Part shown: positions 5,401 through 12,037 of the stretch, one piece after another
How the letters are laid out: each line of letters begins with the position of its first letter
Position numbering within the stretch: the stretch's first letter is position 1
From: Pseudomonadota bacterium
GTDB lineage: Bacteria > Pseudomonadota > Gammaproteobacteria > Steroidobacterales > Steroidobacteraceae
DNA: 64,000 nt
Direction of reading: 5' to 3'
Assembly (NCBI GenBank): GCA_023457495.1
Contig: JAEWLQ010000113.1
Location: 19,629 to 83,628, forward strand
The notes under the pieces: generated by a model
What the model was told of the DNA's origin: nothing
Seen by the model: only the letters and a program-made list of their open reading frames with translations
The model's database searches: none
Made by a program: the position numbers and the translations under genes

Positions 5401-5981
5401 AGCAGGCCGTGAAGGCGATGAAGGAAGGCCGCGAGCCCGAGCTCGACCGGCCACTCGCGGCGACCGCCGAGGTCGAGTTGCGGCTGCCCGCGCTGCTGCC
5501 CGAAAGCTACGTCGCGGACGTGCCCGCGCGCCTGGCGATGTACAAGCGGCTCGCCGCCGCGCCGGACAATGGCGCCATCGATTCGCTGACCGAGGAGATC
5601 GTCGACCGCTTCGGGCCGCTGCCCCCGCCGGCGATGAATCTGCTACGTGTCGCGCGCCTCAAGCTGCTGGCGCGCGCCCTGGGCATCCGGCGTCTCGACC
5701 TCGGCCGCGAAGGCGGATACGCGCTGTTCGAGGAGAAAAACCAGGTCGATCCGCGCGCGGTCATCCGGCTCGTGCAGCATCCGGACCAGGACTATCGTCT
5801 CGACGGTCCACTCAAGCTGCGCATCTCGGTGGAAACCGAGGACGATGCCGAGCGGTTCGAATTCGCCGAGTCCTTCCTGCAGGGATTGCGTGGCGGCGGT
5901 GAAAGCGCCGCGAAGTCGCCGCGGGCAGACAGGATTGCCCCACCGCCCGCCCGGAAACCCGCGGGCGGGAACCGGCGCTGA
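2436..5981 (+). CDS. mfd: transcription-repair coupling factor Mfd
   Basis: 1181 aa. CarD/TRCF RNAP-interaction motif VVHEEYGVGRYVGL, helicase motifs GDVGFGKTEVA and VIVDEEHRFGV, and a C-terminal TRCF domain. The real start may be Met10 (2463). Confidence 0.97.
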   Translation: MTGKLPRSAMPALLHPPIPAAGTRARWRQLYGSARSLALAEAIAADTRPYLVIARDVRELDQLRAELGFYLGGARPIHALPDWEVLPYDLFSPHPDIISERLAALSELPRLKSAVLLASADTLGQRLAPRGYVEGRTFNLAVGDRLEIEPLRARLVESGYASVSQVSAPGEFALRGSLFDVFPMGADSPLRVDLFDDEIEVIREFDPETQRSGATLERVRLLPGRELPLDADSVKAFRLRYRKRFEGDPTRSVIYRGVSDGIAPPGIEFYLPLFFDTTDTLLDYLPQETVVCAGADLPAAIEAATRVVAERHEERRHDVERPILAPDELFLTADELAARLDGFTRIDIDRFKSENEADNFPTSAPQEWRVDLRADRPLAPLENFLATYPGRVLLAADSAGRREVLLEMLRAHSLAPAPVAGWREFVDGEKKFAICVAPEMAGLNVVAPPITVLGEAQLFGQRARQERRRRRAAADPQAILRDLTTLGPGSPVVHEEYGVGRYVGLQMMQVAGQDGEFVVIEYAGGDKLYVPVQQLHLVSRYSGAAPESAPLHKLGTDQWAKARKRAADKIRDVAAELLDLYAQRQAKRGPPLPSKELEYQAFANSFPFEETADQAEAIRQVLADLANEKPMDRVVCGDVGFGKTEVAMRAAFVAAQAGKQVAVLVPTTLLAEQHANNFRDRFADWPVRIEALSRFRSGKESNAVLEGIERGTVDIVIATHRLLHANVRFKDLGLVIVDEEHRFGVRDKEKLKTLRAEVHVLTLTATPIPRTLNMALGGLRDLSLITTPPSERLAIKTFVTEWHAATLREAALREFRRGGQVYFVHNVVESIDKTAQEIAKLIPEADVRVGHGQMRERDLEQLMVDFYHRRFNFLVCTTIIESGIDVPTANTIMIDRADRLGLAQLHQLRGRVGRSHHRAYAYLLTPPRKALSQDAVKRLEAIESLEDLGAGFVLATHDLEIRGAGELLGESQSGELTEIGLTMYLDLLEQAVKAMKEGREPELDRPLAATAEVELRLPALLPESYVADVPARLAMYKRLAAAPDNGAIDSLTEEIVDRFGPLPPPAMNLLRVARLKLLARALGIRRLDLGREGGYALFEEKNQVDPRAVIRLVQHPDQDYRLDGPLKLRISVETEDDAERFEFAESFLQGLRGGGESAAKSPRADRIAPPPARKPAGGNRR

Positions 5982-6003
5982 GCGACCCGTTATACTTTCG
6001 CCC

Positions 6004-6642
6004 ATGAATGCACATGGCCGACCGCGACTGCGCTCCCTGCTCACCGCCGCCCTGTTCGCTATCGTTGCGGCGGCCAGTTCGTTGCCAGCCGCGCGGGCGC
6101 AAACCCCTGCCCCGTCGGCGACCGTCTACACCGTCGAGATCATCGTATTCCGCAACATGACCGGCGCGGGCGGCCCCGAGGACTGGACCGCCAAGCCCGT
6201 GGCCCGCGGCCCCGATCAACCCGACTCGCCGGTCACCGGGCGTTTCATCGCCGCCGTGCCCGCGGCACAGTTCCAGCTCAATGACGTGGCCGCGAAGCTG
6301 CGCGCGTCGGCTAACTATCAGCCAATCGCCCATTTCGCCTGGCAGCAGACCGCGAGCTCGTGGGGCTCGCGCGCGGGCTTCACGATCAACAAGCTCGCGG
6401 GAAACGTGCCGGGGCTCTCCGGCATCATCTTTCTCGAGGCCGGCACCTACCTGCATCTCGGCATGTCGCTGAACTACCAGACCTCGAATCCGCCCGCAGG
6501 CCTCGCGGCGACGCCGGGCACCGTCTTCACGATGGCCGAATCCCGGCGCATCAAGCGCTTCGAGCGCAACTACTACGACCACCCCGCCTTCGGCGTCATC
6601 GCCCTCGTGACCCCCGCGAACCGCGCCACCGGCGGGCGGTAA
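6004..6642 (+). CDS. csiV: CsiV-like periplasmic protein
   Basis: Track ORF 5647..6642 trimmed to Met120 (MNAHGRPRLRSLLTAALFAIVAAASSLPAARA = signal peptide). The C-terminal NYYDHPAFGVIALVTP resembles the CsiV family. The position directly downstream of mfd matches Vibrio, as recalled from memory. Confidence 0.55.
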   Translation: MNAHGRPRLRSLLTAALFAIVAAASSLPAARAQTPAPSATVYTVEIIVFRNMTGAGGPEDWTAKPVARGPDQPDSPVTGRFIAAVPAAQFQLNDVAAKLRASANYQPIAHFAWQQTASSWGSRAGFTINKLAGNVPGLSGIIFLEAGTYLHLGMSLNYQTSNPPAGLAATPGTVFTMAESRRIKRFERNYYDHPAFGVIALVTPANRATGGR

Positions 6643-6656
6643 TCAGCAACTGATGG

Positions 6657-6677
6657 ACGCCCCCGCTTCGGGGGCGT
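6657..6677. terminator. bidirectional hairpin between convergent csiV-like and GGDEF genes
   Basis: ACGCCCCC-gcttc-GGGGGCGT, an 8-9 bp GC stem in the 54-nt convergent spacer. Confidence 0.55.
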
Positions 6678-6696
6678 GAGAAGTGGCCGTCAGGCC

Positions 6697-7620
6697 TCAG
6701 AAGTCGGATTCTTCAGCGACGATCACGCGGTTGCGGCCCTGCTCCTTGGCGCGGGCCACGGCGGATTCGACCGCCTTGAGGAAGCTCGCCGCGGTGTCTT
6801 CGGGGCGCGCAGTGTGGATCGCGACACCGCCGCTCACGGTCACGTAGCGCTGCGTCGAGCGTGGATGATGGATCTGCTGCTCGCGGACGCGATGCGCCAC
6901 GGTGGTCGCATGCTGAATCACGTGATCCGCGGGCGTTCCGTGCATCAGCACGATCACGCTCGCGCCTTCCCAGCGGCCGACGATGTCCGTACCCCGCCGG
7001 AAGGAACCTGCGATGGCGCGCGCCACGCGTTTGACGACGGCATCGCCGCCGGCGCGATCGAAGATTTCGTTGTAGGGACCTAACTGGTCGATGTCGAACA
7101 GCAGCAGCGCGATGTCGGTCTTGTCGCGTTGCGCCAGCGCGAAGTCGCGCTTGAGCACGTCCTCGAAGTAGTAACGCGAAGCAAGACCGGTCAGGCGGTC
7201 CTCGCGCACCCAGCTCGGCAAGCCGCGAATGCCGGTATCACCGGTGCGCTGCCGCGTGCCGCCTTCGCGGTGATAACCGATGAAGTGCGTAACCTTGCCA
7301 TCCCCGTTCTTCAGCGGGTGGATGTGCATGTCGTTCACGAACACCGTGCCATCCTTGCGCTGGTTGCGCAGCAGCGCGCGCGTGGAGTCGCCATGTCCCA
7401 GCGCCTCGCGCAGGCCTTCGAGCTCCTGCTGATCGCGGTCCTCGCCCTGCAGCAGCCGCAGGTTCTTGCCGAGTAGTTCGGAGACCTCGTAGCCGGTCAG
7501 CCGGCAGAACGCGGGATTGGCGTACACGACCAGGCGATCACCGCCGGCCTCGGTGATGACGACACCGTCGGGCGAAACATCGAGCGCACCGCGCAGGAAA
7601 TCGTCCTTGAAGCCGTTCAT
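6697..7620 (-). CDS. LOV-like PAS domain / degenerate GGDEF domain protein
   Basis: 307 aa. The N-terminal half aligns by eye to LOV cores (VVITEAGGDRLVVYANPAFCRLTGY...GKNLRLLQG...NQRKDGTVFVN...THFIGYH). The C-terminal half is GGDEF-like (DRLTGLASRYYFEDVL, FDIDQLGPYNE), but the active site reads EGASV after an intact RGTD. Confidence 0.85.
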   Translation of the reverse strand: MNGFKDDFLRGALDVSPDGVVITEAGGDRLVVYANPAFCRLTGYEVSELLGKNLRLLQGEDRDQQELEGLREALGHGDSTRALLRNQRKDGTVFVNDMHIHPLKNGDGKVTHFIGYHREGGTRQRTGDTGIRGLPSWVREDRLTGLASRYYFEDVLKRDFALAQRDKTDIALLLFDIDQLGPYNEIFDRAGGDAVVKRVARAIAGSFRRGTDIVGRWEGASVIVLMHGTPADHVIQHATTVAHRVREQQIHHPRSTQRYVTVSGGVAIHTARPEDTAASFLKAVESAVARAKEQGRNRVIVAEESDF

Positions 7621-8684
7621 GCGTTGCCCGCCGTGCCGCTGCCCATCGTGAAGTCGAGGGGCGGGGCTTCCGCCGACCTCGCCAGCAGGTCCTGGCTTGC
7701 GCGCCAGGCGTGACCCGCGAGCAATTCCTCGCGCTCGGGCGCCGCACGCCCGCGCATGCGCACCAGGCGCAGGTGCGAACTCGGCTCGATCTCGAATTCG
7801 AGCTCATCCAGCAGGCGCGCGACCGAAGGACGGTCGTTGCAGACCGGCAGCACGTCGCAGCCCGCGGCGAGCGCCGCCTGCGCGCGCGCGACGATATCGC
7901 CGTATTCGGCGGCGCCGCCCATGGACAGATCGTCGGTGAACACCGCGCCCTCGAAGCGCAGCTCCTCGCGCAACGCATTCTGGATCCAGCGCCGCGAGAG
8001 GCTCGCTGGCTCCGGCGCGACGGCGGGAAACAGCACGTGCGCAACCATGACGCCGTGCAGGCCGTTCGCCATGAGGCGCCGGTACGGCAACAGGTCGTTG
8101 CCGAGTTCGTCCCAGGCACGCCGGTCCACCGGCAGCGACTGGTGCGAATCCGCGACCACGGCGCCGTGACCGGGAAAATGTTTGGCCGTGGCGGACATGC
8201 CGGCATCCTTCATGCCCTGCACGTACGCGAGCGCGAGTTGCGCAACCGCCTCCGGCTTCGAATGGAACGCGCGATCGCCGATGACCTCGCTCACACCGTA
8301 GTCGAGATCGACGCAGGGCGCGAAGGACAGGTCCACTCCGTGCGCGCGCAACTCGGCGGCCATGAGCCAACCCATCGAACGCGCGAGCGTGAGACCTTTT
8401 TTGGGATCGACATCGAATTCGTGACCGATGCGCCGCGGCGGTGGCAGGCGCGAGAACTCGGGACGGAAGCGCTGCACGCGCCCGCCCTCCTGGTCGACGG
8501 CGACGATCAGGGCCGGCGAACGCACGGCATGGATGTCGGCGACGAGCTTGCGGAGCTGGTTGGCGCTGGCGTAATTGCGCGTGAACAGGATGACGCTGCC
8601 CACGAGAGGATGGCGCAGCACGTCGCGGTCCTCGGGCGTGAGCTCGAGACCTGCCACGTCGACCATCAATGGGCCCAGGGTCAC
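7617..8684 (-). CDS. nagZ: beta-N-acetylhexosaminidase NagZ
   Basis: 355 aa GH3 with motifs SFAPCVDLD and KHFPGHGAVVADSH. Its stop overlaps the downstream start by 4 nt. Confidence 0.93.
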   Translation of the reverse strand: MTLGPLMVDVAGLELTPEDRDVLRHPLVGSVILFTRNYASANQLRKLVADIHAVRSPALIVAVDQEGGRVQRFRPEFSRLPPPRRIGHEFDVDPKKGLTLARSMGWLMAAELRAHGVDLSFAPCVDLDYGVSEVIGDRAFHSKPEAVAQLALAYVQGMKDAGMSATAKHFPGHGAVVADSHQSLPVDRRAWDELGNDLLPYRRLMANGLHGVMVAHVLFPAVAPEPASLSRRWIQNALREELRFEGAVFTDDLSMGGAAEYGDIVARAQAALAAGCDVLPVCNDRPSVARLLDELEFEIEPSSHLRLVRMRGRAAPEREELLAGHAWRASQDLLARSAEAPPLDFTMGSGTAGNA

Positions 8685-8710
8685 CGTCGTTCCTATCTCG
8701 GGAGCCCCCT

Positions 8711-10051
8711 CTACGATGCCCGGTCGAGCACCGCCATGGACTCCACGTGTGTCGTGTGCGGAAACATATCAAGTACACCGGCGGCACGTAAGCGGAAGCC
8801 ATGATCATGGACGAGCACGCCCAGATCCCGCGCCAGCGAGCCGGTATGACAGGAGATATACACCACCCGGCGCGGCGCGATATGTGCCACGGCGCTCAAA
8901 ACCTCACGCGCGCCGACACGCGGAGGGTCTAACAGGACCGCATCGTACCCGCCGCGCAGCCAGGGGATGGTCGCGTCGGGGGGCGCCGACAGGTCGGCGA
9001 CGTGGAATTCGGCATTGGTGACCCCGTTACGCCGGGCATTGCCGCGGGCCCTTTCAATGAGACCGGGTTCACCTTCGACGCCAACTACCGAGGCCGCGTG
9101 CCGCGCCAGCGGCAGCGTGAAGTTGCCCAGGCCGCAGTACAGGTCCAGGACCCGGTCGGTCGGCCGGACCTCGAGTAGTTCGATCGCGCGGGCGACCATG
9201 CCGTGATTGATGGCCGCGTTGACCTGGACGAAGTCCGAGGGCCCGAAGTCGAGCTTGAGACCGAACTCATCCAGGCGGTAATGCAGGTCGACCGGACCCG
9301 GCGTCAGCGGCACGATGGTATCGAGCCCGCCGGGCTGCAGCATGATGCGCAGGCCCTGGGCTCTTTCGAATTCGGCGAGCCGGGCGAGATCGCCTTCGGT
9401 CAGCGGATCGAGGATGCGCATTACGAGCACGCGCTCGCCGTCGGACAGCGATACCTCGATCTGCGGGATGCTCTCGCGCCGCTCCATGCCCGTGAGCAGT
9501 TCGCCGAGCGTGCCGACCAGTGCACCGACCGGCTCCGCGAGCACTTCGCAGCGCTGGACGTCGGCGACGTACTTGCCCTGCTTCTCGCGGAATCCCACGA
9601 GGCTGCGGCCCTTCTTCGACACGAAGCGGGACGACAGGCGCGCGCGGCGGCGATAGCCCCAGACGGGGCCTAACAAAGGCTGCAGCCAGGTTTCGGGCGT
9701 CACCTTGCCGATGCGCTCCAGGTTGGCGGCGAGCTCGTTCTGCTTCGCGGCGATCTGCTTCGCGGGGTCGAGGTGCTGGAGCGCGCAACCGCCACACACA
9801 CCGAAATGCGCGCAGCGCGGTGTGACGCGGTCAGGCGAGGCCTCGAGCACTTCGAGGAGCTCGGCCTCGTCGTGACTCTTGTGGAAGCTGCGACGCCGGA
9901 AGGAAACGCGCTCGCCCGGCAACGCGCCGGCGACGAACACGGTCTTGCCCTGCGTTTCCGCCGCTCGCACCACGCCTTCGGCCTCGTGGGTCAGATCCGC
10001 GACCACGCCCGTTTCTGGCACGGCATTGGCCGCGCGCGACGCGCGGCTCAC
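8711..10051 (-). CDS. rlmD: 23S rRNA (uracil1939-C5)-methyltransferase RlmD
   Basis: TRAM-like N-terminus, Cys cluster CAHFGVCGGCALQH, SAM motif VLDLYCGLGNFTLPLA, C-terminal VVYISCH. The start is placed at in-frame GTG 10051, which forms a GTGA overlap with the upstream stop. The longest ORF would start at 10132. Confidence 0.9.
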   Translation of the reverse strand: MSRASRAANAVPETGVVADLTHEAEGVVRAAETQGKTVFVAGALPGERVSFRRRSFHKSHDEAELLEVLEASPDRVTPRCAHFGVCGGCALQHLDPAKQIAAKQNELAANLERIGKVTPETWLQPLLGPVWGYRRRARLSSRFVSKKGRSLVGFREKQGKYVADVQRCEVLAEPVGALVGTLGELLTGMERRESIPQIEVSLSDGERVLVMRILDPLTEGDLARLAEFERAQGLRIMLQPGGLDTIVPLTPGPVDLHYRLDEFGLKLDFGPSDFVQVNAAINHGMVARAIELLEVRPTDRVLDLYCGLGNFTLPLARHAASVVGVEGEPGLIERARGNARRNGVTNAEFHVADLSAPPDATIPWLRGGYDAVLLDPPRVGAREVLSAVAHIAPRRVVYISCHTGSLARDLGVLVHDHGFRLRAAGVLDMFPHTTHVESMAVLDRAS

Positions 10052-10842
10052 GAGACCGTCTCCTCGCCCGAGGTCGCGGGCCAGGCGGCGAGAAACTCGT
10101 CGAAGTGCGGCAGACGCGCCTCGGTGAGCCACGCCCGCGTACGCGCGAGCTCATCGTCTAGTCCGACATCCGTGAGCCGGCCGCGCATGTGCTGGAAGCG
10201 CAGGAAGACCAGCCAGGTGTTGATGACATCGGTCTCGCAGTAATGGCGGATGCGCGTGAGGTCGCCCGCGCGATACGCGTCCCACACCTGCGATCCGTCG
10301 AAACCGAGTTTGCCCGGGTAACCGAGCAGCACGGCCGCATCCGACAGCGAAGCCCGCGCGCGCGCCTGGTATCCGGACAACACGTCCATCACGTCGATGT
10401 GCCGCCAGTGAAAGCGCCCTAGATAGTTGTTGTAGCGGAATGCGTTGTCCTCGTCGCCGGTTTCCCAGTAGCGAGGCGCCTGCACCCTGTGCCGCAATGC
10501 GCGGTAATGCAGCACGGGCAGGTCGAAGCCGCCGCCATTCCAGCTCACGAGGTCCGGTGAGAATTTCTCGATGCCATCGAAGAACCGCATGACGAGCTCG
10601 CGCTCGGAGGCGGACTCCTCGCCGAGACTCCACACGCGAAATCCCTCGCGCGAGCGGAACGCGCAGGAGATCGCGACGATGCGATGCTGGTCGTGCGGCA
10701 GGAAATCGCTGCCCGATTCCTGCCGCGCGCGCGCCTGCATCGCCTTGCCGACTTCGTCGTCGGAGAGTCCGTCGAGGCCAAACAAACGACGGCCGAATTC
10801 CACGTCCGGCACCGTCTCGATGTCGAAAACCAGTGTGTTCAT
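10048..10842 (-). CDS. DEDD 3'-5' exonuclease, PolB-exonuclease-domain-like
   Basis: 264 aa. ExoI FDIETVPD, ExoII-like SWNGGGFDLPVL, ExoIII-like HYCETDV. There are 4-nt overlaps with acpS upstream and rlmD downstream. Confidence 0.7.
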   Translation of the reverse strand: MNTLVFDIETVPDVEFGRRLFGLDGLSDDEVGKAMQARARQESGSDFLPHDQHRIVAISCAFRSREGFRVWSLGEESASERELVMRFFDGIEKFSPDLVSWNGGGFDLPVLHYRALRHRVQAPRYWETGDEDNAFRYNNYLGRFHWRHIDVMDVLSGYQARARASLSDAAVLLGYPGKLGFDGSQVWDAYRAGDLTRIRHYCETDVINTWLVFLRFQHMRGRLTDVGLDDELARTRAWLTEARLPHFDEFLAAWPATSGEETVS

Positions 10843-11297
10843 CGGCGCACCCGGCGGCGCGTCGCGGAACGCACGTTCTTGCGTCGCGCCCGTTTGCGCG
10901 CGGCGCGTTTCGCCGGTTCGGCGGTCTCGAGCACCGCGACCGCGACGATGAGACCCGCTTCATCGGTGAGCGTCACGTGTCCGCCACCGATGCCGAGCTG
11001 GCGGCGCACCTTCTCGCCGCGCGGTGAATAGACGACCTCGGGCCGGCCCCAGGCGTTCTGCACGACGCCCACGTCACGAATCCAGATGCCATTCGCGAAG
11101 CCCGTTCCCATGGCCTTCACGATGGCTTCCTTGGCCGCGAAACGCATCGCGAGGAACCGTTCGGTCCGCTTCGTCTTGGACATTTGCGCGCGTTCGGCCG
11201 GCATGAGCAGGCGCTCGACGAAATGCTCACCGTATTTGTCGAAAAGCTTCTTCACGCGCGCGGCCTCGAGCACGTCGACGCCGATTCCGAAGATCAT
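10839..11297 (-). CDS. acpS: holo-[acyl-carrier-protein] synthase AcpS with basic C-terminal tail
   Basis: Track ORF 10839..11378 trimmed to Met28 ([15 protein letters not shown]...[13 protein letters not shown]). ATGA overlap with the pdxJ stop. 152 aa, of which the last ~27 are Arg/Lys-rich. Confidence 0.9.
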
Positions 11298-12037
11298 CGG
11301 CGCGCATCCTGCATCAGCGCCTTCATGTCGCGCACCGCGGCATCGAGCCCGGTGAAGATCGCGCGCGCGACGATGCAATGGCCGATGTTGAGCTCGACGA
11401 TCTCGGGAATGGCCGCGACGGGCGTCACGTTGTTGTACGTGAGTCCGTGGCCGGCGTGAACCTCGAGGCCAAGCCCCGCGGCGTATTTCGCCGCGCTCGC
11501 GAGCCGCTCGAGTTCGCGCGCCTGCGCGGCGCCGCTCGAGTCGGCATAGTTTCCGGTGTGCAGCTCGATGACGGGCGCGCCGGAGCGTTTCGCGGCATCG
11601 ATCTGCGCCGGGTCCGGGCCGATGAACAACGCGACGCGAATGCCGGCCGCCGCCAGCTCCTTCACGCCCGCAGCCACGCGCTCGAGATCCGCGGCGACGT
11701 CGAGCCCACCCTCGGTGGTGATTTCCTGGCGGCTCTCGGGCACGAGACAGCAGTCATGCGGCCGCACGCCGATCGCGATCCCGATCATTTCGCGGGTGAG
11801 ACCCATCTCGAGGTTCATGCGCGTCTGCAGCAGCGGACGCAGGCTGTGCACGTCGCGATCCTGGATGTGGCGCCGATCCTCGCGCAGGTGCAGCGTGATG
11901 TTGTCCGCGCCGGCCTGTTCCGCCAGCAGGGCCGCATGCACGGGATCCGGGTACGGCGCGCGGCGCGCCTGGCGGACGGTGGCGACGTGATCGATGTTGA
12001 TGCCGAGCGCTATGGGCCCGCCGGATCTGACACTCAA
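11294..12037 (-). CDS. pdxJ: pyridoxine 5'-phosphate synthase PdxJ
   Basis: 247 aa with [15 protein letters not shown] and EVHAGHGL motifs. TTG start overlaps the recO stop. Confidence 0.95.

Follow-up and report, generated by a model that had tools for sequence, protein, structure and literature searches.

A 307-residue protein encoded on the minus strand of a 64,000-nucleotide stretch of Steroidobacteraceae DNA (contig JAEWLQ010000113.1; the whole stretch is termed the window, and the gene, gene X) combines an N-terminal PAS domain descended from light-oxygen-voltage (LOV) photoreceptors with a C-terminal, degenerate GGDEF domain. On balance, it is likely to be a flavin-holding, non-photocycling redox sensor fused to a GGDEF-derived receptor for cyclic di-GMP (c-di-GMP), as judged from residue conservation. 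The product would be a soluble, cytoplasmic two-domain signalling protein, expressed from the last cistron of a gene array and translationally coupled to NagZ. Its LOV-derived domain would most likely still hold a flavin, probably flavin mononucleotide. Because the adduct-forming Cys is replaced by Leu, a cysteinyl adduct would be impossible, and because the active-site Gln is replaced by His, the relay of N5 protonation by Gln would be absent; with neither residue in place, the domain most likely reports the redox state of its flavin (chemical reduction and re-oxidation) and not a LOV photocycle. Synthesis of c-di-GMP would likewise be impossible, since the active site (A-site) is devoid of metal-binding acidic residues and the FK of the phosphate loop is lost. 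The complete inhibitory site (I-site; R209xxD212 plus R165) makes it most likely that the GGDEF domain binds c-di-GMP and serves, like PopA or PelD, as a receptor or adaptor, with output through protein-protein contacts.

Gene X occupies positions 6697-7620 of the window, stop codon included, and begins with ATG. Pfam assigned PAS_9 to residues 17-118 (E 1.6e-16; the combined PAS_9/PAS span is about 9-118) and GGDEF to residues 141-298 (E 1.2e-28). The closest solved structure in a PDB search, covering both domains, was the LOV-activated diguanylate cyclase MsLadC (8C05; E 4e-38). The features of the gene are as follows.

6697-7620, minus strand: coding sequence of gene X, 307 amino acids (list of open reading frames; Pfam PAS_9 and GGDEF; more than 260 homologues; ratio of non-synonymous to synonymous substitution rates, dN/dS, of 0.11).
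7267-7587, minus strand: LOV-type PAS core, residues 12-118 (YtvA_fam, 92.7 bits; LOV structures, E 1e-28 to 1e-16).
7459-7461, minus strand: codon of Leu54, at the adduct-Cys position (YtvA C62), from alignments; Leu, Pro or Met, never Cys, in relatives.
7270-7272, minus strand: codon of His117, at the active-site Gln position (YtvA Q123), from alignments; His in 134 of 146 family members.
7201-7266, minus strand: linker, residues 119-140, Gly/Pro-rich and ending in a conserved GLPxWxRED motif (AlphaFold2; family alignment).
6727-7200, minus strand: degenerate GGDEF domain, residues 141-298 (Pfam; Foldseek match to WspR; dN/dS 0.055).
7126-7128, minus strand: codon of Arg165, counterpart of the secondary I-site Arg198 of WspR (WspR alignment and residue counting).
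6985-6996, minus strand: I-site R209-G-T-D212 (RxxD), aligned to RSSD of WspR, five residues before the A-site.
6955-6969, minus strand: degenerate A-site E218-G-A-S-V222, replacing GG(D/E)EF (alignments to WspR and MsLadC).

The PAS domain belongs, by sequence and predicted fold, to the LOV clade. Among the NCBIfam models, the YtvA-family blue-light photoreceptor scored 92.7 bits over this region, compared to 55.9 bits for the generic PAS S-box and 53.2 bits for NifL (E 1.7e-14). In the PDB search, dozens of LOV domains ranked next after 8C05, at E values from 1e-28 to 1e-16, and the top matches of the PAS domain by itself were all LOV domains. An AlphaFold2 model built from a 146-sequence alignment (mean predicted local distance difference test score, pLDDT, of 88, and about 90-97 in the PAS core) was used; a model from only 40 sequences, none below 81% identity, was poor in the GGDEF domain (pLDDT 71). 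The PAS core of the 146-sequence model superimposes on short LOV proteins at 1.4-2.3 Å, with 39-42% identity (Foldseek).

At the level of individual residues, GKNLRLLQG aligns to the GKNCRFLQ of MsLadC and short LOV proteins, which places Leu54 at the position of the adduct Cys, and FIGYH aligns to YLGIQ, of the general form (Y/F)(L/I)G(I/V)Q, which places His117 at the position of the active-site Gln. Between these two motifs, NQRKDGTVFVND of the window protein pairs with NYRKDGTIFWNE, and its counterpart in LOV proteins reads NYRKDGT(I/L)FWNE. A first-pass annotation of the window had proposed a LOV-type PAS domain at about residues 12-120 with Cys replaced by Leu in GKNLRLLQG, a motif NQRKDGTVFVN, and Gln replaced by His in FIGYH; the profile searches, the LOV structures and the Foldseek comparison bear out the domain assignment, and residue-level alignment reproduced the three motif readings. 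Hence, judged by its sequence, the domain is LOV-derived, yet without both of the features that define LOV photochemistry, namely the adduct Cys in GxNCRFLQ and the Gln of strand I-beta. A heme- or metal-binding role for His117 was set aside, as this residue is situated on the I-beta strand and faces the flavin site; heme-PAS domains use the F-alpha helix for their His.

The remainder of the flavin pocket is well preserved. Of the 20 pocket positions of Bacillus subtilis YtvA, 13 are identical in the window protein, four are aliphatic swaps and three are other changes, namely C62 to L54, Q123 to H117, and F64 to L56. The flavin contacts N61, R63, Q66, R79, N94, and N104 of YtvA are kept as N53, R55, Q58, R71, N86, and N96; N53 alternates with Asp across the family, and the other polar contacts are invariant or nearly so. 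In LOV domains, the counterparts of R55, Q58, N86, and N96 hydrogen-bond the flavin and its phosphate. The numbering of the YtvA sequence used for this mapping was checked against the numbers given in a published study of LOV* proteins (PMC4682037).

More than 260 relatives, down to 42% identity, carry the same set of changes. The best 120 database matches have 81-94% identity with the window protein and show its signature; the Cys site is occupied by Leu, or in 13 of them by Pro, and the remaining motifs read G(Y/F)H, [EDN]GAS[VI], and RG[TS]D. An exhaustive HMMER search of 1.8 billion representatives retrieved a wider set of proteins of about 300 amino acids and 35-55% identity with this signature, in the form of GxNLRxLQ, G(F/Y)HR(D/E), a linker running into GLPxWxREDRLTGL, and RRxxD; these have DxLxxYNETFGR where canonical proteins have DxFKxxNDxxGH, and A-sites such as EGGTF, DGGSL, or DDDQI. 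Canonical LadC-like proteins retrieved by the same search display NCRFLQ, GIQ, DHFK...GH, and RYGGEEF. Finally, a profile search gathered 117 distant members that are 42-51% identical to the window protein. The Cys site is Leu in 115 of these and Met in two, and it is Leu, Pro or Met, and Cys in none, across about 260 relatives. The Gln site is His in 105 of the distant members, Tyr in seven, Cys in four, and Ser in one (in the 146-sequence alignment, the 12 members without His likewise have Tyr, Cys or Ser).

The predicted ligand-binding residues are retained throughout this divergence. Among the 117 distant members, R55, Q58, and N86 are each present in all, N96 in 114, and the R71 position is Arg in 103 and Lys in seven; RxxD and Arg165 are also present in all 117, and a GG(D/E)EF A-site in none. 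The invariant columns of the 146-sequence alignment include Q58, N86, R165, D193, R209, and D212. It is thus the LOV flavin-binding and the I-site c-di-GMP-binding residues that selection has retained, while the catalytic motif drifts. Our literature search returned no description of this family or of a nagZ-GGDEF pair, and the family is a previously undescribed, strongly conserved one of soil Steroidobacteraceae, its samples being exclusively from soil, compost, and rhizosphere.

Three database proteins may represent evolutionary intermediates: P0246 has Leu at the Cys site with the Gln and the GGDEF motif intact, and P0165 and P0184 have the Cys together with degenerate A-sites. A scan of genome collections with the single protein did not extend beyond close relatives of 82% identity or more; every one of these is a metagenome-assembled genome (MAG), and no cultured Steroidobacter genome was among them. 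Two MAG records with close orthologues, L004 and L018, are labelled Alcaligenaceae and Croceibacterium, respectively, the latter being a 2.4-kb contig; the synteny that they share with Steroidobacteraceae loci suggests that they are mis-binned or mislabelled.

The C-terminal domain retains the GGDEF fold, its model superimposing at 1.4-1.7 Å over about 168 residues on the GGDEF domain of WspR (Foldseek). RGTD-IVGRW-EGASV of the window protein aligns without gaps to RSSD-LAARY-GGEEF of WspR, and the three I-site residues R209, D212, and R165 are invariant in all 146 aligned sequences as well as in the 117 distant members. In contrast, the family consensus of the A-site is [ED]G[GA][STCR][ILVF], in which the third and fourth residues are never acidic as they are in GG(D/E)EF. 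In GGDEF enzymes, these acidic residues coordinate the metals. Furthermore, DxFK of the canonical domain reads DQLG and the GH motif reads DR, such that both the phosphate-loop FK and the GH are lost. Since acidic third and fourth A-site residues are absent across about 260 relatives, and FK and GH are gone, cyclase activity is very unlikely. The first-pass annotation had similarly described a retained GGDEF scaffold, an inhibitory RGTD five residues ahead of an EGASV that replaces GG(D/E)EF, improbable cyclase activity, and a sensor acting as a c-di-GMP receptor. Its structural statements agree with the Pfam match and the gapless WspR alignment, the loss of FK and GH and the family-wide A-site degeneration strengthen its doubt about catalysis, and the comparative data (invariant RxxD and Arg165, low dN/dS) point in the same direction as its suggestion of a receptor.

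Selection on the gene was estimated by comparing the window to 18 orthologous loci, with nagZ taken from the same genome pairs. The median dN/dS was 0.11 for the whole gene, 0.23 for its LOV part, 0.055 for the degenerate GGDEF domain, and 0.15 for nagZ. That the degenerate GGDEF domain is the most constrained part excludes decay and favors a role in binding a ligand or partner. Soil metatranscriptome contigs cover the gene in close relatives. A nearly invariant loop, I-H-H-P-R at residues 250-254 (6859-6873, minus strand), was also noted within this domain; P253 is present in 146 of 146 sequences, and the loop is partly resembled by ISHDQ of WspR and IHHKG of MsLadC. This conserved surface patch could be a partner-binding site.

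The proposed binding of c-di-GMP, which we consider most likely, follows from the invariant I-site and from precedents. PopA of Caulobacter and PelD of Pseudomonas have a degenerate A-site and an intact RxxD, bind c-di-GMP, and exert their output by protein-protein contacts (PMC12564702). The alignments indicate the same arrangement in the window protein, with an intact RxxD five residues before a degenerate A-site and a secondary Arg; however, the N-terminus of PopA consists of receiver domains in place of a LOV-derived PAS domain, and the partners of PopA and PelD are known. The N-terminal module of PelD is a membrane-anchored GAF domain.

Flavin binding is also most likely, given the conserved ligands and the published tolerance of each substitution alone. 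In NifL (PAS1), MmoS, and Aer, a flavin in the PAS pocket reads the redox state without a Cys adduct; sensors of this type bind flavin adenine dinucleotide, and their outputs are kinase or chemotaxis modules. The NifL model matches the PAS region of the window protein only weakly, and MmoS (3EWK) is found among its PDB matches; the LOV similarity is clearly above that to NifL. A natural analogue of the pocket is Halobacterium BAT-LOV*, which has a LOV-like pocket without the adduct Cys, Pro occupying this site as it does in some members of our family. BAT-LOV* binds flavin, responds to reduction, and was proposed to be a redox or photoreduction sensor (PMC4682037). The LOV* definition in the same study requires at least nine of the other ten LOV consensus residues, Q123 included, and the window protein has seven of the nine listed residues, F64 being Leu56 and Q123 being His117; relatives with Phe at position 56 come nearer to it, and the effector differs from that of BAT-LOV*. 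With respect to the second substitution, engineered Gln-to-His LOV variants, Q123H of YF1 among them, hold flavin and are devoid of a photocycle (PMC9098866). The natural LOV-deltaQ receptors described in that study also have the active-site Gln replaced, His being among their variants, and one tested member is a LOV-GGDEF(-EAL) protein; compared to these, the window protein additionally lacks the Cys and has a GGDEF domain that is predicted to be catalytically dead.

Several points weigh against the reading as a flavin-based redox sensor and c-di-GMP receptor. Over the flavin C4a, a Leu side chain takes up more space than that of Cys, and the pocket could be occupied by a different ligand or by none. 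The distant proteins P0209, P0215, and P0227 have lost flavin-contact residues and kept RxxD, which implies that the PAS pocket is dispensable in some branches. On the GGDEF side, the conservation of N184, D193, and K292 leaves room for an A-site that binds a nucleotide. No output domain was recognised in the protein, and the metatranscriptome contigs are only 150-300 nt in length and none crosses the junction with nagZ.

One alternative is a PAS pocket that does without flavin, either binding another small ligand, such as a peptidoglycan-recycling metabolite, or serving for dimerization only, with the GGDEF domain still acting as a c-di-GMP receptor. Both residues of LOV photochemistry are replaced, Leu54 may crowd the isoalloxazine site, RxxD outlives the flavin ligands in the distant branches just mentioned, and the tight linkage to nagZ suggests a cell-wall context. 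Against this, R55, Q58, N86, and N96 are invariant or nearly so from 42 to 95% identity, which is hard to explain without a flavin-like ligand, and each substitution has been found by experiment to be singly compatible with flavin binding. We consider a flavin-free pocket unlikely.

If flavin is retained, the protein might still be a blue-light receptor, in which a Cys-less flavin is photoreduced to the neutral semiquinone and modulates the c-di-GMP-binding GGDEF domain. LOV* proteins occur in nature, and VVD and YF1 that lack the Cys use the neutral semiquinone to signal (PMC4682037); moreover, the flavin contacts are conserved, and the nearest solved relative is a light-activated LOV-GGDEF protein. 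However, the Gln-to-His exchange abolished light responses in YF1 and NmPAL (PMC9098866), and the helical J-alpha/coiled-coil relay of the LOV-GGDEF photoreceptors is absent. In LadC proteins, the linkers are heptad coiled coils of 21 or 35 residues that carry the signal (PMC10396304). In the AlphaFold2 model of the window protein, residues 122-135 have a pLDDT below 50 and are predicted to be disordered, with no J-alpha helix; the stretch equivalent to the LadC linker, E119 to L143, has 25 residues and shows indels among relatives (25-26 amino acids in most members, 32-37 in others), and no heptad coiled coil is found between the D(I/V)(T/S) and DxLT motifs. A Gly/Pro-rich, disordered linker of this kind without a helix would make coiled-coil register switching unavailable, such that any coupling of the domains would occur by docking. 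The soil, compost, and rhizosphere habitat lends light sensing no support, though light is not excluded there. Blue-light reception is hence distinctly improbable.

Even less expected is a GGDEF domain that senses GTP or another nucleotide at its remnant A-site, in the manner of PdeA/CC3396, whose degenerate GGDEF domain binds GTP, or that serves as a nucleotide-free scaffold, without c-di-GMP at the I-site. Conservation extends to the guanine contacts N184 (143 of 146 sequences) and D193 (146 of 146) and to D176 and K292; however, these four residues also have a part in the scaffold of the fold. Loss or variation affects the FK of the phosphate loop, the GH motif, R296 (which varies in the family), and the two acidic residues of the A-site, and the invariant residues are the three of the I-site. 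This makes nucleotide sensing at the A-site very unlikely.

There remains next to no room for an active, unorthodox diguanylate cyclase or a decaying pseudogene: some non-canonical motifs are active, such as AGDEF in VCA0965, although this motif keeps DEF (PMC3974145), and the intact reading frame in more than 260 relatives, with a dN/dS of 0.11, rejects a pseudogene. In the window protein, the third and fourth motif positions are Ala-Ser, and in its relatives Gly followed by Ser, Thr, Cys or Arg. To our knowledge, other active non-canonical GGDEF variants also retain the DEF residues. Public databases annotate family proteins as "diguanylate cyclase" or "cell cycle response regulator"; read as a claim about activity, the former label is almost certainly mistaken.

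The redox-sensing c-di-GMP receptor that we favor looks like a LadC protein minus the Cys, the Gln, the coiled coil, and catalysis, and its predicted PopA/PelD-type output would be combined with a redox input akin to that of NifL or BAT-LOV*. It shares with LadC (PMC10396304) the LOV-then-GGDEF order, a similar length (about 310-320 amino acids), and the RxxD, and LadC is its best match in sequence and structure. The adduct Cys, the Gln, the heptad coiled coil, and the active GGEEF of LadC are replaced in the window protein by Leu, His, a disordered linker rich in Gly and Pro, and EGASV, respectively. The protein therefore belongs neither to the LOV photoreceptors nor to the LadC proteins or the active cyclases, because the defining features of these groups were looked for and are absent. 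A large natural family in which Leu and His consistently take the place of both LOV-defining residues, and in which the flavin ligands are under selection, offers a natural test of whether LOV domains and PAS redox sensors interconvert. For the c-di-GMP field, it provides a widespread candidate effector of soil bacteria, with a "dead" GGDEF domain that is more constrained than the neighbouring enzyme.

The association with nagZ is another conserved property of the family, and the elements involved are as follows.

7617-8684, minus strand: nagZ, beta-N-acetylhexosaminidase of family GH3, the upstream cistron (NCBIfam PRK05337; Pfam Glyco_hydro_3, E 1.6e-75).
7617-7620, minus strand: ATGA, comprising the nagZ stop and the gene X start (sequence; ATGA or GTGA kept in the close clade).
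6657-6677, no strand assigned: 9-bp GC-rich hairpin between the convergent stops of gene X and csiV (-28 kcal/mol, z = -2.8 versus shuffled sequences).

The NagZ of the window is bona fide, scoring 431 bits with the NCBIfam equivalog PRK05337 against a cut-off of 207. The ATGA, which reads tcat on the plus strand, confirms the 4-nt overlap of the nagZ TGA with the start of gene X that had been noted in the first pass, and the question raised there as to whether the linkage is conserved in relatives is answered by about 100 loci, in which nagZ lies directly upstream without exception. These include 29 of 29 genome loci of close relatives (Steroidobacteraceae MAGs where named), six divergent lineages of 42-49% identity with the same nagZ-X order, of which L039 differs entirely in its downstream flank, and all 67 metagenome loci having at least 300 nt of upstream DNA. 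In these 67, the spacing is a 4-nt overlap in 41 and a gap of 11-14 nt in the others. The close clade keeps the ATGA or GTGA overlap, even with a 5-amino-acid N-terminal extension. Such extended relatives, of 313-315 amino acids, were seen in L018:186-210, L007, L013, L020, L025, and L028 (MNGxS before MNGF); the extension looks as though 15 nt of the start region had been duplicated in tandem (GCATGAACGG...ATGAACGG), and the upstream ATG is the one that retains the ATGA overlap with the nagZ stop. On the other side of gene X, csiV is missing from the 11 metagenome loci that extend far enough downstream, so that the linkage of nagZ and X is closer than the synteny of the region at large. In deep comparisons, NagZ is 58-66% identical and the gene X product 44-47%.

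Gene X is the final cistron of a tight, co-directional array, lepA-lepB-rnc-era-recO-pdxJ-acpS-(PolB-exo-like exonuclease)-rlmD-nagZ-X, in which 4-nt overlaps also occur elsewhere, e.g., at acpS/exo and pdxJ/recO. As such overlaps are the general packing style of the operon, the coupling indicates that gene X is co-expressed with nagZ, which need not mean that the two share a function. The fixed place after nagZ hints that the protein may be connected with peptidoglycan recycling. Since the pair is without exception, is translationally coupled, and survives downstream rearrangement, the protein might form a complex with NagZ or another recycling component and set the recycling flux by c-di-GMP and cellular redox state; we regard the chances of this as small. 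If true, it would constitute a direct, previously unknown link of second-messenger signalling to muropeptide turnover. Knockout of nagZ is reported to raise c-di-GMP in Enterobacter cloacae (PMC11197897), and a physiological connection between the two would therefore not be far-fetched.

The hairpin at 6657-6677 is, from its predicted stability, a probable bidirectional terminator that ends the operon; it was not listed by a consensus terminator scan because it has no T-run. A sigma-70 scan of 6400-11600 revealed no internal promoter-like site, and as none was expected by chance either, this result is uninformative. On the far side of the hairpin, a CsiV-family peptidoglycan-binding protein is encoded convergently (5647-6642, plus strand; Pfam PF10972, E 2.9e-15), followed by mfd, and with nagZ upstream, gene X is accordingly flanked by two cell-wall-related genes in the window. 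Other lineages differ in their surroundings. In the divergent locus L033, a CYTH-domain gene is situated between rlmD and nagZ, and a DUF2147 gene follows gene X with a 4-nt overlap (L033:4450-4932 and L033:6939-7403). In L039:6953-11610, an ADI-like gene, a CHASE4-HAMP histidine kinase, and a receiver-GGDEF-EAL protein follow gene X and replace csiV-mfd, such that gene X adjoins other c-di-GMP signalling genes in that lineage.

Within the array, the PolB-exonuclease-like 3'-5' exonuclease (10048-10842, minus strand; DNA_pol_B_exo2, E 8.9e-87) is located between acpS and rlmD; it occurs in most related loci that reach that far, and an insert of this kind is unusual for the classical rnc-era-recO-pdxJ-acpS cluster. 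Elsewhere, the window consists of chromosomal housekeeping DNA, with no further c-di-GMP gene and no match to the PADLOC defence models. It encodes a macB-like permease, mfd, rseA/rseB, sdhA/sdhB, a 907-amino-acid DUF2339 protein, a murI-like racemase, a class II aminoacyl-tRNA synthetase, recJ, pcm, ispD/ispF, an M16 peptidase, eno, hrpA, deaD, and a bactofilin. Sequence near-identical to the window was found in compost metagenomes.

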